Source: Candidatus Omnitrophota bacterium (GTDB lineage Bacteria > Omnitrophota > Gorgyraeia > Zapsychrales > JANLHA01). Taken from it: DNA of 64,000 nt. How positions within the stretch are numbered: position 1 is the first letter of the stretch; the number at the start of each line of letters is the position of its first letter. Positions 5,571 to 10,153 of the stretch are shown here, piece after piece. Below the pieces are notes generated by a model, which searched no databases, was not told where the DNA came from, and saw only the letters and a list, made by a program, of their open reading frames with translations. The stretch spans positions 120,245 to 184,244 of the forward strand of contig JACKFJ010000002.1 of NCBI GenBank assembly GCA_020632535.1. The letters run 5' to 3'. The translations under genes were made by a program, and so were the position numbers.

Positions 5571-8129
5571 ATGACTACTCAAGCATCCACCCCAATGCTC
5601 GCGCAGTACCAAAAAATCAAATCACAATATCAAGACTGCATTCTTTTTTTCCGCCTCGGTGATTTTTATGAAATGTTCTACGATGACGCCAAAAGTGCGG
5701 CCAAAACCCTTGATTTGGTTTTGACAGCCCGCGGTCGCGGGACAATCAACGAAGCACCCATGTGCGGCATACCCTATCATACGGCCAATAGCTATATCGA
5801 CCGTCTTATTAAAGCAGGGCACAAAGTCGCTGTCTGCGAACAGGTTGAGGATCCCGCGGTCGCGGTTGGCATTGTCCGGCGCGATGTCATTCGAGTCATT
5901 TCATCCGGCACTTATCTTGATGAAAATTCTCCTGACTCTCGCTATCTTTGCGCTTTAAGTCCAAATGGAAATACCATTGGCATAGCCTTTACCGATCCGG
6001 TCAGCGGCTCAATTCAGACCAATCAATTCGAAAACACTCATAAAATTATTGAGTTATTAGCACGTCTGCCTATCTACGAATGTGTTTTTCCTGCTAGCGA
6101 AGAAGATAAAATTAAAGAATTGCTCAAACATCCACTTCTCAAAACAAAAATTCTGACGTTAAGTCCGCAGGAAAACTGGTCTTTTAATAGTGATATCGCG
6201 TCCAAAAATCTATGTGAACATTTTGCTGTTTTGAATTTACATGGTTTCGGTCTGGATGGATTGTCAATGGCAGTATCAAGCAGTAATGCGCTCCTTGAGT
6301 ATCTCAAAATCATGAATCGCCAACCGCTTCGTCATATTAATCGTCTCAGTCTCTATACCGACGAGGATTACGTTTATCTTTCACCGGCCGCGCATTATGG
6401 CCTTGAAATCGAAACATTTTTTAAAACCATCAATTGCACATTGACATCCATGGGCAAGCGCCAATTGCGTTCATGGCTTAGCCATCCTTTACGAAAAGTA
6501 GACGCCATCCTTGAACGCCAAAATGCAGTCACGCTTTTACGCAATCATTCCGAAAACTTACGCACACTCAGAGAATGCTTAAGTCCATTGCCTGATTTAG
6601 AAAAGTCCATTTCCAAATTAAGTTCGGGATATACGCAACCCAAGGATTTGCTTTCAGCACGCAACAGCTTGGCTCTTTTGCCAAAAATTCTTGATGCCGT
6701 AGCTCCGCTTGTTACTCAAAATCGACTTTTTTCTGTTGATGACATTCCTTCATTACGAAAGCTTTTAGAAAACGCGATCAATCCCGACATGCCTCTTGCA
6801 AATAATGAAGGCAAGGTGATCAAGCGGGGATTTAATACAGACCTCGATGCTTTGCGAGATATTCAAGAAAATGGACAAGAATGGCTGCGCCGTTATCAAG
6901 CGCAAGAAATCACCCGCTCAAAAATCAATTCTCTTAAAGTCGGTTTTAATAAAGTCTTTGGATATTACATTGAAGTAACAAAGGCTAACGCCAATCTCGT
7001 GCCGGATCACTTTATTCGTAAGCAAACCTTGGTCAATGGCGAACGGTTTATCACGCCGGAATTAAAAGAATATGAAGAAAAGATTTTAACCGCCGAAGAC
7101 AAAATCCGCAAAATTGAAAATGATTTGATTGAGGAATTAAAAAAAACTATCCTTGATCACGCGCCTGCCTTACACAAATTTAGCCAAAGCGCGGCAACAT
7201 TGGATGCATTGTATTCTCTCGCTGTTCTTTCGCAAGAACCCGGTTATGTCGCACCGGAAATTAGTTCTGACAATGTCTTGGATATTCAAGAGGGTCGTCA
7301 TCCTGTCGTCGAAAAAACATCAAACCAGAATTTTATTCCTAACGACACGCACTTGAATTGCCAAGACCAACATTTAATTATCTTAACCGGACCGAACATG
7401 GCCGGAAAATCGACATATATCCGACAAATTGCTTTATTGGTAATGTTGAGTCAAATGGGCAGCTATGTTCCAGCCAAAAGCATGCACGTCGGCGTCGTGG
7501 ATAAAATTTTTACCCGCATAGGCGCGCACGATGACATCACCAAAGGCCAAAGTACGTTTATGGTTGAAATGAGCGAAACTGCGGATATTCTCAATAATTT
7601 AACCCCGCGCAGTTTGGTCATCTTAGATGAAATCGGCCGCGGAACCAGCACGTATGATGGTTTAAGTTTAGCGTGGGCATTGGCCGAGCATTTTCAAAAA
7701 GCAAAAAGCCGCACCCTTTTTGCTACGCATTTTCACGAACTCACAGCATTGGCGAATGAACACAGTGGAGTCAAGAATTACAATGTCGCGGTCAAGGAAT
7801 GGAAAGACGAAATTATCTTTTTACACAAAATTGTCGAAGGCAGTACCGATGACAGTTATGGTATTTATGTCGCAAAACTTGCGGGGGTGCCGCAAAAGGT
7901 TATCGGACGGGCGAAACAAATCCTAGTCGAACTCGAAACGCAAGGAACTTCACAAAAACATCTTATTTCCAAGTCAGCTAACAATGATCAGCTTTCATTA
8001 TTTACCACTAAAATTGATCCGACCTTAGAAGAACTTAAGAATTCGATTGAGAAAATTGATGTGAATCATTTGACTCCGCTCGAAGCTTTGAATAAGATTC
8101 AAGAATTAAAACAGTTGATCAAGGAGTGA
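5571..8129 (+). CDS. mutS: DNA mismatch repair protein MutS
   Basis: 852 aa. The N-terminal mismatch-binding motif matches MutS (TPMLAQYQKIKSQYQDCILFFRLGDFYEMFYDDAKSAAKTLDLVLTARG). Walker A GPNMAGKST at ~7390-7420, then DEIGRGTSTYDG and FATHFHEL. Confidence 0.95.
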   Translation: MTTQASTPMLAQYQKIKSQYQDCILFFRLGDFYEMFYDDAKSAAKTLDLVLTARGRGTINEAPMCGIPYHTANSYIDRLIKAGHKVAVCEQVEDPAVAVGIVRRDVIRVISSGTYLDENSPDSRYLCALSPNGNTIGIAFTDPVSGSIQTNQFENTHKIIELLARLPIYECVFPASEEDKIKELLKHPLLKTKILTLSPQENWSFNSDIASKNLCEHFAVLNLHGFGLDGLSMAVSSSNALLEYLKIMNRQPLRHINRLSLYTDEDYVYLSPAAHYGLEIETFFKTINCTLTSMGKRQLRSWLSHPLRKVDAILERQNAVTLLRNHSENLRTLRECLSPLPDLEKSISKLSSGYTQPKDLLSARNSLALLPKILDAVAPLVTQNRLFSVDDIPSLRKLLENAINPDMPLANNEGKVIKRGFNTDLDALRDIQENGQEWLRRYQAQEITRSKINSLKVGFNKVFGYYIEVTKANANLVPDHFIRKQTLVNGERFITPELKEYEEKILTAEDKIRKIENDLIEELKKTILDHAPALHKFSQSAATLDALYSLAVLSQEPGYVAPEISSDNVLDIQEGRHPVVEKTSNQNFIPNDTHLNCQDQHLIILTGPNMAGKSTYIRQIALLVMLSQMGSYVPAKSMHVGVVDKIFTRIGAHDDITKGQSTFMVEMSETADILNNLTPRSLVILDEIGRGTSTYDGLSLAWALAEHFQKAKSRTLFATHFHELTALANEHSGVKNYNVAVKEWKDEIIFLHKIVEGSTDDSYGIYVAKLAGVPQKVIGRAKQILVELETQGTSQKHLISKSANNDQLSLFTTKIDPTLEELKNSIEKIDVNHLTPLEALNKIQELKQLIKE

Positions 8130-8200
8130 TAATTAATTTTTACGGCTCAAAGTTCCTTCGGAACTGATTCGCCTTAAAAAATTAATTATCACTCCTTGAT
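8118..8200. terminator. Perfect 24-bp palindromic stem (8118-8141 / 8177-8200) with a 35-nt loop holding an inner hairpin; a putative bidirectional terminator or RNA processing site overlapping the mutS stop codon
   Basis: ATCAAGGAGTGATAATTAATTTTT pairs perfectly with AAAAATTAATTATCACTCCTTGAT. The inner hairpin is AGTTC-CTTCG-GAACT (8151-8165). The mutS stop TGA (8127-8129) lies inside the left arm. No U-tract follows, so the terminator call is tentative. Confidence 0.4.
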
Positions 8201-8216
8201 ATAACAATTTAAATTT

Positions 8217-8341
8217 AAGAAGTAAGAACAAGTCCGAAAGCGAATTGAACGCAGCCCCGATTCTGGCCTCCTTAGGCAAATGCCTAAGGAGACATCCACC
8301 GGGGATCGTTCATTGAGATTGAGGACTTGTTCTTACTTCTT
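8217..8341. repeat. Nested inverted-repeat element between mutS and mutL; a structured RNA, regulatory leader of mutL, or MITE-like insertion
   Basis: The outer arms are a perfect 19-bp inverted repeat: AAGAAGTAAGAACAAGTCC (8217-8235) and GGACTTGTTCTTACTTCTT (8323-8341), with an 87-nt spacer. Inside is CCCCG (8255-8259) paired with CGGGG (8300-8304). Inside that is a 10-bp stem CTCCTTAGGC/GCCTAAGGAG (8268-8277 / 8282-8291) with loop AAAT. It ends 14 nt before the mutL RBS. Confidence 0.6.
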
Positions 8342-8365
8342 AGCATAACTACTAAAAGGAAATTT

Positions 8366-10153
8366 ATGTCGCGCGTTCATATTCTTTCTTCTGATGTTAT
8401 CAGTAAAATCGCCGCCGGCGAAGTCATTGAACGTCCAGCTTCCGTCATCAAAGAACTCGTCGAAAACAGCCTCGACGCCGGCAGCAATCTTATCGAACTA
8501 CACCTCAAAGATGCCGGCAAAAGTCTCATTCATCTAAAAGACAGCGGATACGGCATCGACCACGATGATCTCGAAACAGTTTTTGAGCGCCATTCAACAA
8601 GCAAAATCAAAACTGCCGACGACCTCTTCGACATTCACTCGCTCGGATTTCGTGGCGAAGCACTTTACAGCATCGCAGCCGTTTCAGATATCACATTGCG
8701 CAGTAAGACCAAAAAGCAAGATTCCGGCTGGGAAATTCATATGCGCGGTGGTAAAAAAGTAAATCTCAAACCCGCGGCAACACACAATGGAACAGAGATC
8801 GAAATCAAAGAACTTTTCTTTAACACTCCCGCCCGCCGAAAATTCTTAAAAAGCAACACCACTGAACTTAATCAAATTCTAAGCACCCTGATTCCCTACT
8901 GTCTTTTTTATCCGCAATGCCGTTTTCTTGTCACACACGAAAAACGAACTCTTTTAGATTTGGCACCGACCGAGAATCACATTCAGCGTGTGGCTGAAAC
9001 TCTTAATCTGGAAAACACGCATTTACTTGAACTCTCTGAAAACTTTAGCGAACAACGATTTTCTGCGCGTATGATTATTGGCGATATCAATATCAGCCGC
9101 TCACGCCGCGACATGCAATTTATTTTTATCAATGGCCGACCCGTACAAAGCAAAGCAATAAGCTTTCATCTTAATGATATTTATCGACTGATTCTGCCAC
9201 CCAACTCTTATCCATTTTTTACACTCTTTTTAACGATTCCCGCCGGACACGTGGATGTTAATATTCATCCCACCAAACGCGAAGTCAAAATCCATGACGA
9301 GCATAATCTTATGCCGCTTTTACGGCATATGGTTGAACAAACATTAATGACCAAAGGAAAACCCAAAGAAATCAAAGAAAAAGTCTCTTTGGATGAAAAA
9401 GCCATAGCTTTAAGACGGGCTTTAGAAAAAAGCACACCTCATGATTCGACATTTCCACAATCTTCTGAACGTGAAGTCCCGATCACTGGTATTTCCGAAA
9501 ACACATCAGTAACAGAACAATATACTTTTCCAAAACAAGATAACTTTATTCCGGACGGGTCTTCAAGTATTCAAAATGCCGGACAAAACCTCATCAATAA
9601 ATTTTCGCGCAGCCGTTATTTGGGCGCGTTTATCAATAAATTCTTGCTTTTTGAGGCGGATCGTTCACTTTTGATCGTCGATCAACACGCGGCGCAGGAA
9701 AGAATTGTTTTTGAAGCTTTAATTAGACAAATGGAACGCGGAAAAGTAGAAGTACAAAATCTTTTAACACCTGATCTTTTGAAAGTTTCTATGACGGAAA
9801 TGCTCGCATGGGAAGAAAGCAAAGAGACTCTTGAAAAATTAGGTTTAACATCAACACAATTTGATAAAGACACCATCGCGATACACAGCTGTCCGGCACT
9901 TCTGAGTGATCCAATGCGAGCAGTACGGGAACTTTTAACAGGTGGGAATATTTCACGCGCAGACCACGCGACTTTAGCACGTCGGGCGTGTCGCGCGTCC
10001 ATCCGTGCCGGCGATCCACTTAAGGCAAGCCAAGCTGAATTTCAAAAAGATCAACTTCTTAAATGTCGTGACCCTTTCACATGCCCGCATGGCCGACCAA
10101 CAGTCATCGAAATCAAGGAAAACTTTCTCGACCGACAATTCTTCCGAACTTAA
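8366..10153 (+). CDS. mutL: DNA mismatch repair protein MutL (endonuclease-type; DQHA(X)2E(X)4E and CPHGRP motifs present)
   Basis: The ORF track gives 8327..10153. The preferred start is ATG 8366 (MSRVHIL...) with RBS AAAGGA at 8355-8360. GHKL ATPase N-terminus (ISKIAAGEVIERPASVIKELVENSLDAGSNLIELHLKDAG). C-terminal endonuclease motifs LIVDQHAAQERIVFEAL, ACRASIRAGD and CPHGRPT. Confidence 0.93.
   Translation: MSRVHILSSDVISKIAAGEVIERPASVIKELVENSLDAGSNLIELHLKDAGKSLIHLKDSGYGIDHDDLETVFERHSTSKIKTADDLFDIHSLGFRGEALYSIAAVSDITLRSKTKKQDSGWEIHMRGGKKVNLKPAATHNGTEIEIKELFFNTPARRKFLKSNTTELNQILSTLIPYCLFYPQCRFLVTHEKRTLLDLAPTENHIQRVAETLNLENTHLLELSENFSEQRFSARMIIGDINISRSRRDMQFIFINGRPVQSKAISFHLNDIYRLILPPNSYPFFTLFLTIPAGHVDVNIHPTKREVKIHDEHNLMPLLRHMVEQTLMTKGKPKEIKEKVSLDEKAIALRRALEKSTPHDSTFPQSSEREVPITGISENTSVTEQYTFPKQDNFIPDGSSSIQNAGQNLINKFSRSRYLGAFINKFLLFEADRSLLIVDQHAAQERIVFEALIRQMERGKVEVQNLLTPDLLKVSMTEMLAWEESKETLEKLGLTSTQFDKDTIAIHSCPALLSDPMRAVRELLTGGNISRADHATLARRACRASIRAGDPLKASQAEFQKDQLLKCRDPFTCPHGRPTVIEIKENFLDRQFFRT

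Follow-up and report, generated by a model that had tools for sequence, protein, structure and literature searches.

What separates two mismatch-repair genes that overlap in most of their relatives? This question is raised by a 64,000-nucleotide stretch of an Omnitrophota metagenome-assembled genome (MAG; Candidatus Omnitrophota bacterium, contig JACKFJ010000002.1), here called the window, in which mutS finishes at position 8129 and the ATG of mutL lies at 8366. Of the 236 nucleotides (nt) of the intervening spacer, 198 are taken up by two palindromic elements, termed E1 (8118-8200) and E2 (8216-8342). The answer that we favour, with somewhat more confidence than doubt, is that an ancestral overlap of mutS and mutL was opened by E2, which resembles a miniature inverted-repeat transposable element (MITE), and by E1, whose arms are copied from each other at a junction that is a hotspot for such elements. 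The two genes would thus originally have been translationally coupled, and two unrelated palindromes would have opened their junction: E2 as an insertion of the MITE, Correia or ERIC kind into the linker upstream of the mutL ribosome-binding site, and E1 as a conserved palindrome which at least three further lineages, distinct at species level, carry at the same position, and which supplies the end codons and the stop of mutS.

E1 is 83 base pairs (bp) long. Its left arm (ATCAAGGAGTGATAATTAATTTTT, 8118-8141) and right arm (AAAAATTAATTATCACTCCTTGAT, 8177-8200) are complementary at all 24 positions and enclose an interior of 35 nt (8142-8176) with a degenerate quasi-palindromic core, in which folding places an inner hairpin, AGTTCC-TTC-GGAACT (8151-8165), and a GGC/GCC pair (8144-8146 / 8171-8173). 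E1 begins 11 nt upstream of the mutS end, ...CAG TTG ATC AAG GAG TGA, so that the outer part of its left arm consists of the final three codons together with the TGA (8118-8129); the right arm is an inverted copy of mutS coding sequence. E2 covers 127 bp, is quasi-palindromic about 8279/8280 and ends in perfect terminal repeats of 20 bp (8216-8235 / 8323-8342), which stretch to 36 nt at 83% complementarity. The 87 nt between the perfect arms hold three nested stems, TGAACG/CGTTCA (8246-8251 / 8307-8312), CCCCG/CGGGG (8255-8259 / 8300-8304) and CTCCTTAGGC-AAAT-GCCTAAGGAG (8268-8291, with arms at 8268-8277 and 8282-8291 and AAAT as the loop). An earlier description made from this DNA alone, the sequence-only reading, had placed two perfect inverted repeats in the spacer, with coordinates that are right except for one base of E2, and its picture of E1 as 24-bp arms that start within the last mutS codons around an inner hairpin is borne out. 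Its perfect repeat in E2 is likewise present, at 20 bp and not the 19 bp given, as are the stems enclosed by it, of which there are three and not two. The AT-rich linker ATAACAATTTAAATT (8201-8215, plus strand) separates the elements, and a Shine-Dalgarno (SD)-like region, AAAAGGAAA (8354-8362, plus strand), lies downstream of E2, 3 nt 5' of the mutL ATG.

Both elements are far more structured than chance would allow. The region 8100-8370 folds at -114 kcal/mol, compared with -52 +/- 4 for shuffled sequence (z = -14.6; none of 200 shuffles as good), E1 and E2 folded singly reach z-scores of about -10 to -11 each, and only 0.01-0.02 arm matches of this kind are expected by chance within the window. 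These fold z-scores and the rarity of expected arm matches exclude a chance origin. An assembly artefact was considered as a further source and is ruled out, since a Logan contig from the reads of SRR12358675, an independent assembly, is identical to the window across 8083-8400. Logan contigs of the window's own population end within mutS, at window positions 7808 and 8083.

The state from which this arrangement arose can be read from the junctions of relatives, which were collected via MutL homologues and a metagenome scan; the loci are cited by L numbers. Both mutS and mutL were detected in 37 loci, and in every one of them the two are adjacent. Mostly they overlap, usually by 4, 8 or 14 nt and in one case by 29 nt, and spacers of at least 40 nt occur in 14 loci (13 of 40-308 nt and one of 1342 nt). 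Because most relatives show the overlap, this common state is probably also the ancestral one, which makes the 236-nt spacer of the window derived. The overlaps are not all of one type: in L070 and L071 (2990-3004 in each), mutS reads through SD-containing sequence (…CAAAAGGAAAACACATGA), so that the mutL ribosome-binding site is itself mutS coding sequence, unlike the shorter overlap of L002 and L007 (…CTTYTATGA).

Most of the spacers open with a strong hairpin: its left arm contains the mutS stop or borders directly on it, and its right arm is the inverted copy of the left. The sequences of these hairpins vary by lineage (L006, L035, L041, L048, L039, L004, L055, L069), and L035 carries a palindrome without a loop that is centred on the mutS stop. 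In L041, the hairpin arms are found again 3 kb away (L041:3119-3188 and 6016-6130), and here a dispersed element different from E1 encodes the final codons of mutS together with its stop. The junction element of L069 (2915-2990) recurs twice in the distant locus L054 (4033-4061 and 8439-8471); this repeat type (GTCATCCTGAGCGAAGCGAAGGATC...) resembles one that we take to occur in many uncultured bacteria. Another palindrome, of 87 bp, is present in two copies in L052 (7324-7410, 11752-11836). Relatives therefore carry species-specific, dispersed families of palindromic repeats, to which at least two of the junction hairpins belong. Furthermore, perfect inverted repeats with arms of at least 12 nt number 40 in 415 kb of these loci compared with 2-7 in shuffled sequence; 22 of the 40 start no more than 25 nt from the stop of an open reading frame (ORF) of at least 150 amino acids (aa), where 1.8 are expected, and 15 span a stop codon (expected: 1.3). 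This enrichment at stops makes long perfect gene-end hairpins a regular feature of these genomes, and the mutS-mutL junction is a hotspot for palindromic elements. Two further kinds of repeat were seen in the junction spacers, namely short direct repeats in L039 (830-875), where CCCTACACAAAC is present in two or three copies, and arms rich in GTCACA/TGTGAC in L037 (1470-1555), L057 (9700-9950) and L048.

The clearer of the two histories is that of E2, which none of the relatives examined has (L004, L006, L068, L069 and L072), the three with E1 copies of their own among them. Between hairpin and mutL ATG, L068, L072, L004 and L006 have about 20-45 nt where the window has 165 nt, and the sequence on either side of E2 can be aligned between the window and relatives that lack it: the linker upstream matches the post-hairpin linker (ATAAAC...) of L068 and L072, and the SD region downstream is kept in spacer-bearing relatives in the form (A)AAAGGAAA. 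Taking out 8216-8342 leaves a linker of the same kind as that of the relatives, with E2 placed at its 3' end. Neither the remainder of the window nor any of the fetched loci shows similarity to E2. Since the element is missing from relatives and dissimilar to both the window and the fetched loci, E2 is, as judged from these alignments, a lineage-specific insertion in the AT-rich linker 5' of the mutL ribosome-binding site.

By analogy with the features described in PMC2649163, PMC2229807 and PMC10969869, E2 fits the MITE, Correia and ERIC kind of element: size and hairpin shape agree, the target is AT-rich, and the terminal repeats are perfect, with TA at either end. At 127 bp it lies below the MITE limit of about 500 bp and is non-coding (the sole ORF touching it, of 48 aa at 8133-8279 on the minus strand, runs over its left half and has no Pfam hit), it has 20-bp perfect terminal arms, and filled and empty sites exist at orthologous loci. 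The MITE-like insertion, one of several roles that the sequence-only reading had offered, is thereby supported for E2. Correia elements (CREE/NEMIS) of Neisseria, of about 100-155 bp, offer a close comparison: they likewise have long perfect terminal repeats and TA ends, lie between co-transcribed genes and fold as long hairpins, with a terminal duplex that serves RNase III as a substrate (PMC2649163, PMC2229807), being co-transcribed and bound or cut by that enzyme (PMC2649163). They exceed 100 copies per genome, however, whereas for E2 no second copy came to light in collections that lack the source genome; they share no sequence similarity with E2, and neither an IHF site nor a promoter motif was identified in it. 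The ERIC/IRU and REP/BIME/REPIN repeats of Proteobacteria are also imperfect palindromes in transcribed intergenic regions just 3' of stops, and ERIC too measures about 127 bp; E1 differs from them in overlapping the stop codon itself, and the arms of both E1 and E2 are longer and perfect. As an extragenic palindrome at a gene 3' end, E1 has the position typical of REP/REPIN repeats, which are defined by high copy number and the RAYT transposase; the E1 copies seen are those at the junction. A mobile element between mutS and mutL has a precedent in SpyCIM1 of Streptococcus pyogenes, which interrupts the operon and changes mutL expression (PMC4689407, PMC3430984). A phage-like island of 13 kb, SpyCIM1 encodes an integrase and excises reversibly; E1 (83 bp) and E2 (127 bp) are non-coding and known from sequence alone. 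Overall, E1 and E2 are new members, in an under-studied phylum, of a well-known class of small palindromic repeats in bacteria.

E1 has a different history, and the suggestion that the two elements are one phenomenon does not hold. Hairpins homologous to E1 occur in three other genomes, whose copies were compared by a scripted analysis of arms and interiors and by a covariance model. The model recovers the L068 hairpin on the opposite strand (51 bits, E = 8e-10), and blastn ties L004 to L068 (85% over 41 nt, E = 1e-7). Perfect arms measure 24 bp in the window, 21 bp in the near-identical element of L072 (CAAGAGTGATGATTAATTTTT) and 21 bp in L068, and they are 100% complementary in all three, with no G-T pairs; in L004, 12 bp of the inner stem remain perfect, the outer stem is degenerate and mutS reads through the homologue of the window's left arm. 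Read in register from the inner end, the left arms of the window and L072 differ at three positions, of which two fall in the penultimate mutS codon (AAG compared with CAA). As the arms are perfectly complementary in both genomes, these coding changes are mirrored in the non-coding right arm. Covariation in relatives, by which the hairpin was to be judged, is therefore present for E1, with every arm difference mirrored in the partner arm. The interiors of L072, L068 and L004 are homologous to that of the window as well (29/33 identical positions between the window and L072). The interior of L068 matches that of L072 at 36 of 41 positions without gaps after reverse-complementing, compared with 25 of 35 with gaps in the same orientation, and since the ungapped match needs the reverse complement, the inter-arm segment of L068 is inverted.

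Template switching between the arms of an inverted repeat is known to homogenise the arms, to invert the spacer and to expand the arms (PMC8604942, PMC13100816), and all three published signatures of such quasi-palindrome mutagenesis (PMC8604942, PMC13100816, PMC7202029) are seen among the four E1 copies. E1 is thus a conserved element with self-copied arms. Replication template switching, by which one arm is copied from the other, would keep the arms perfect and would also account for the inverted interior of L068 and for an outward growth of the arms into mutS. It is, however, a mutational process and not an element family, and explains the symmetry of E1 but neither its origin nor its conservation; the pattern fits arm homogenisation in a palindrome that may be either mobile or strongly constrained.

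The same process could be taken further, with both palindromes grown in place from a small seed hairpin by repeated fold-back copying, never mobile and devoid of function. Such growth would leave perfect outer arms around degenerate inner parts, as seen in E1, E2 and L068, would make the right arm of E1 an inverted mutS coding sequence and could yield a loop-less palindrome centred on a stop such as that of L035; arm expansion by template switching is moreover on record (PMC13100816). We nevertheless regard local growth as unlikely, as E2 resembles neither its neighbouring sequence nor the linker of relatives, so that 127 nt would have to be new, and a neutral local process does not explain why E1 is conserved across saturated divergence.

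This conservation is considerable. The window and L072 agree in E1 at 69 of 74 aligned positions (93%, or 75% with the end gaps and the 9-nt deletion in the loop included), compared with 62-75% identity in the flanking coding DNA, and the four-fold degenerate sites of mutL are saturated between the window, L072 and the pair L068/L004 (36-41% identity). Nevertheless, the E1 carriers do not group on the MutL tree and the distribution is patchy. The sister of L072 is L071 (95% in the identity matrix, 96% over the first 900 nt), in which the genes overlap and no hairpin is present; L068 and L004 are sisters with 73% identity at four-fold sites, yet their E1 copies differ more than those of the window and L072. 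Other junction elements behave alike on this tree, where L069, with its different, dispersed element, is sister to the overlapping L070, and L006 to the overlapping L002.

Such conservation might also mean that E1 is a vertically inherited, selected and non-mobile RNA hairpin that acts in cis at the mutS 3' end, as an RNase III site, a partial terminator or attenuator, or a stabiliser of the mRNA, and was lost in several lineages, with E2 as an incidental arrival. We consider this possible, at a clearly lower probability than the account favoured here. In its support, conservation is far above neutral, arm substitutions are mirrored, and the window and L072 share the position, the linker, the SD region and a stop inside the left arm. 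L068 has the position and linker in common with them, though mutS is not upstream, and mutS of L004 reads through the homologous sequence. Unrelated hairpins lie across the mutS stop, or begin at it, in L006, L035, L041, L048, L039, L055 and L069, and the overlap of L070 and L071, in which mutS reads through the SD linker, looks as if a hairpin had been deleted. Against a selected RNA, the inversion in L068 would exchange it for its complement and yet the sequence is kept at 88%; pairing in the perfect arms is Watson-Crick only, without G-U, which points to copying at the DNA level; E1 differs more between the closely related L068 and L004 than across the deep split from the window to L072; the window shows a 9-nt loss in the loop; and at least four or five independent losses are required on the MutL tree. 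(Upstream of the hairpin, L068:1-58 is not mutS, and the contig ends there; another insertion or rearrangement, or a chimeric contig end, may lie behind this.)

As part of the favoured account, E1 may itself belong to a mobile or dispersed family that reaches this hotspot or is re-converted there, or it may have arrived once and been lost repeatedly. We lean very slightly to the former, because the sequence is kept after inversion, is labile between close relatives and has neighbouring families that are dispersed. An old, constrained E1 would need at least four losses, with which the mutS read-through of the SD linker in L070 and L071 is compatible; the return of E1 at one exact site also speaks for this reading. 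A more specific proposal, which we hold to be improbable, is that E1 and its linker form a site-specific mobile 'intercistronic cassette' that invades overlapping junctions. Such a cassette would bring an in-frame stop (GAG TGA in the arm), a hairpin and a downstream SD (AAAGGAAA), would maintain its arms by self-templated copying while its interior could flip, and would have opened the mutS-mutL junction repeatedly in Omnitrophota, possibly tuning the supply of MutL and hence the mutation rate.

Several results weigh against the account of E1 and E2 as elements from elsewhere. That three or four lineages have the same E1 family at exactly one site is not easily reconciled with random transposition, and E1 copies were seen at the junction only, in four genomes whose available intergenic DNA amounts to a few kb. 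A second copy of either element was found neither in the 64-kb window nor in the fetched loci, which total about 600 kb. In collections that do not include the source genome, the 18-mer of E2 gave 12 single hits among GTDB species representatives, where by our own estimate roughly 17 are expected by chance, the 20-mer gave none in JGI metagenomes, and the 16-mer gave 14 single chance hits in IMG/VR, in which the E1 core pattern was not found; the chance nature of the E2 hits was checked in L025 (IMG/VR) and in L015, a comparable GTDB hit. A blastn search of the spacer against plasmids and phages returned no match. Furthermore, the Logan contig runs unbroken through E1 and E2, which argues against identical extra copies at similar coverage, on the assumption that Logan contigs are built from 31-mers. 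The TA at 8216-8217 and 8341-8342 may be a target duplication, in which case the E2 repeats measure 18 bp (8218-8235 / 8323-8340), or just two further bases of the palindrome. Finally, neither strand is clearly favoured as RNA, the two strands folding at -42.1 and -42.9 kcal/mol for E1, and at -68.1 and -72.6 kcal/mol for E2; equal folding of both strands is as expected for DNA palindromes. A double hit of the E2 18-mer in L013 proved to be unrelated, being the fold-back contig end of a Synergistaceae MAG; there (L013:1440-1589), the reverse complement of the preceding 90 nt follows a hairpin loop, likely an assembly artefact.

A hairpin at the end of one gene and a palindrome before the next might also be a terminator and a promoter. 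A Rho-independent terminator combines a short G+C-rich stem and a small loop with a U-run that follows directly. The stems of E1 and E2 are 24 and 20 bp long and AT-rich, with interiors of 35 and 87 nt; no T-run follows E1 (GATATAACAATTT) or E2 (GCATAACTAC) on the plus strand, and a consensus terminator scan made no call at either, in agreement with the sequence-only reading that these are no simple terminators. It thus appears very unlikely that E1 terminates mutS and that E2 carries or created a mutL promoter, with two separate transcription units as the result. Gene-end hairpins are common in these genomes and many resemble bidirectional intrinsic terminators, and Correia elements can create promoters (PMC2649163), but a 24-bp stem with a 35-nt interior is unlike an intrinsic terminator, promoter-like matches in the region are not in excess (15, compared with 10.8 +/- 3.4 in shuffles), and none within E2 faces mutL. 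The terminator-like hairpins of different Omnitrophota share a layout of an A-run, GGGGAC(A/G)..., a loop, ...GTCCCC and a T-run, with perfect arms of 13-30 bp (L049:3618-3660; L050:3986-4061 and 7939-8101; L054:4083-4140 and 7845-7874; L063:1064-1101 and 6475-6504; L007:7913-8026). By their sequence, these look like bidirectional intrinsic terminators, and their GGGGAC motif is missing from both E1 and E2.

An independent small RNA gene, or a riboswitch-like leader of mutL, formed by E2 or by both elements, is hardly credible. The fold is very stable and lies upstream of mutL, and a small structured RNA had been among the roles first suggested. However, no Rfam family reaches its gathering threshold at the spacer, the top hits are generic long hairpins on both strands, E2 is not conserved in any relative examined, promoter-like matches stay at shuffle level, and the equal folding of the strands is what a DNA palindrome would give; the small-RNA and riboswitch readings were rejected on the sub-threshold Rfam hits and the absence of E2 from relatives. 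The best Rfam hit, RF04343 (42 bits compared with a gathering score of 55.8, E = 1e-6, both strands), is the inverted repeat of the plastid psbA 3' untranslated region, likewise a long AU-rich hairpin with AAGGAG/CUCCUU and a stabiliser of the mRNA 3' end. E1 is not a member, as its hit stays below the gathering score, is equal on both strands and is aligned via generic stem pairing only. In both elements, an SD-like AAGGAG is paired with CUCCUU (8121-8126 / 8192-8197 and 8267-8274 / 8284-8291), and CCUCCUUA in the centre of E2 presumably equals the 16S rRNA 3' end; the motif is not kept in the E1 copies of L072, L068 and L004. An integron attC site was rejected by eye, the ends of E2 (…GTAAGAAC / GTTCTTAC…) misfitting the R''/R' cores RYYYAAC ... 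GTTRRRY, and the scan of neighbouring genes showed no integrase-like ORF.

If the junction was opened as we propose, consequences for expression may follow at the RNA level. Because the genes of relatives overlap and no terminator is evident, one mutS-mutL transcript probably holds both hairpins, which as RNA would form perfect duplexes of 24 and 20 bp without a U-tract. The stop of mutS occupies stem positions 10-12 of E1, and a terminating ribosome would thus have to melt the stem. With the coupling via an ATGA overlap lost, mutL would rely on its own SD region (8354-8362). Perfect duplexes of 24 and 20 bp lie within the usual size of RNase III substrates and could block 3' exonucleases, and REP, ERIC and Correia elements shift the relative expression of neighbouring cistrons in this way. 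Repeats of the REP/ERIC type reportedly change how stable the mRNA segment upstream of them is and, when a stop codon is near, how the upstream gene is translated. The hairpins of the spacer might likewise serve as an RNase III-size substrate or as a barrier to 3' exonucleases, so that MutS and MutL levels could differ; RNase III processing, stabilisation and an uncoupling of mutL translation are putative effects.

The genes on either side are well defined. On the plus strand, mutS in the ORF list (5571-8129, 852 aa) contains all five Pfam domains MutS_I-V, with E-values down to 6e-84, and mutL (8366-10153, 595 aa) contains HATPase_c_3, DNA_mis_repair and MutL_C; its product is 100% identical to a protein named MutL from a 'Candidatus Omnitrophica bacterium' MAG at NCBI. 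Convergent with mutL, the stops lying 2 nt apart (10153/10156), a giant ORF on the minus strand (10156-64000) stays open to the end of the window over at least 17,947 codons; the gene call on a Logan contig has 20,590 aa and is still partial. The order mutS, mutL, giant gene is present in all close relatives, with gene calls of up to 30,695 aa (L005), and giant genes were already known in Omnitrophota (bioRxiv 10.1101/2023.11.21.568195). Across the window, the Rfam scan reported only an AdoCbl (cobalamin) riboswitch (RF01482, 1259-1398, minus strand; 51.5 bits compared with a gathering score of 50), and a scan for tRNA and tmRNA found none.

Taken together, these observations document small palindromic repeat elements in the Omnitrophota, a phylum known almost only from MAGs; neither the giant-gene paper (bioRxiv 10.1101/2023.11.21.568195) nor a 2026 survey of Omnitrophota genomes mentions mutS/mutL or palindromic repeats. 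E1 would be a clean natural bacterial example of arm homogenisation and spacer inversion, with coding changes of mutS mirrored in non-coding DNA. For annotation, it is of importance that the C-terminal residues and the stop of mutS are encoded by a repeat element in the window and L072, and by a different, dispersed element in L041. Furthermore, different hairpin elements have probably separated, on repeated occasions, a pair of mismatch-repair genes that was ancestrally overlapping and translationally coupled. If it is true that these insertions lower or uncouple MutL expression, the mutation rate could be modulated, as by the larger elements of Streptococcus, although this is speculation.

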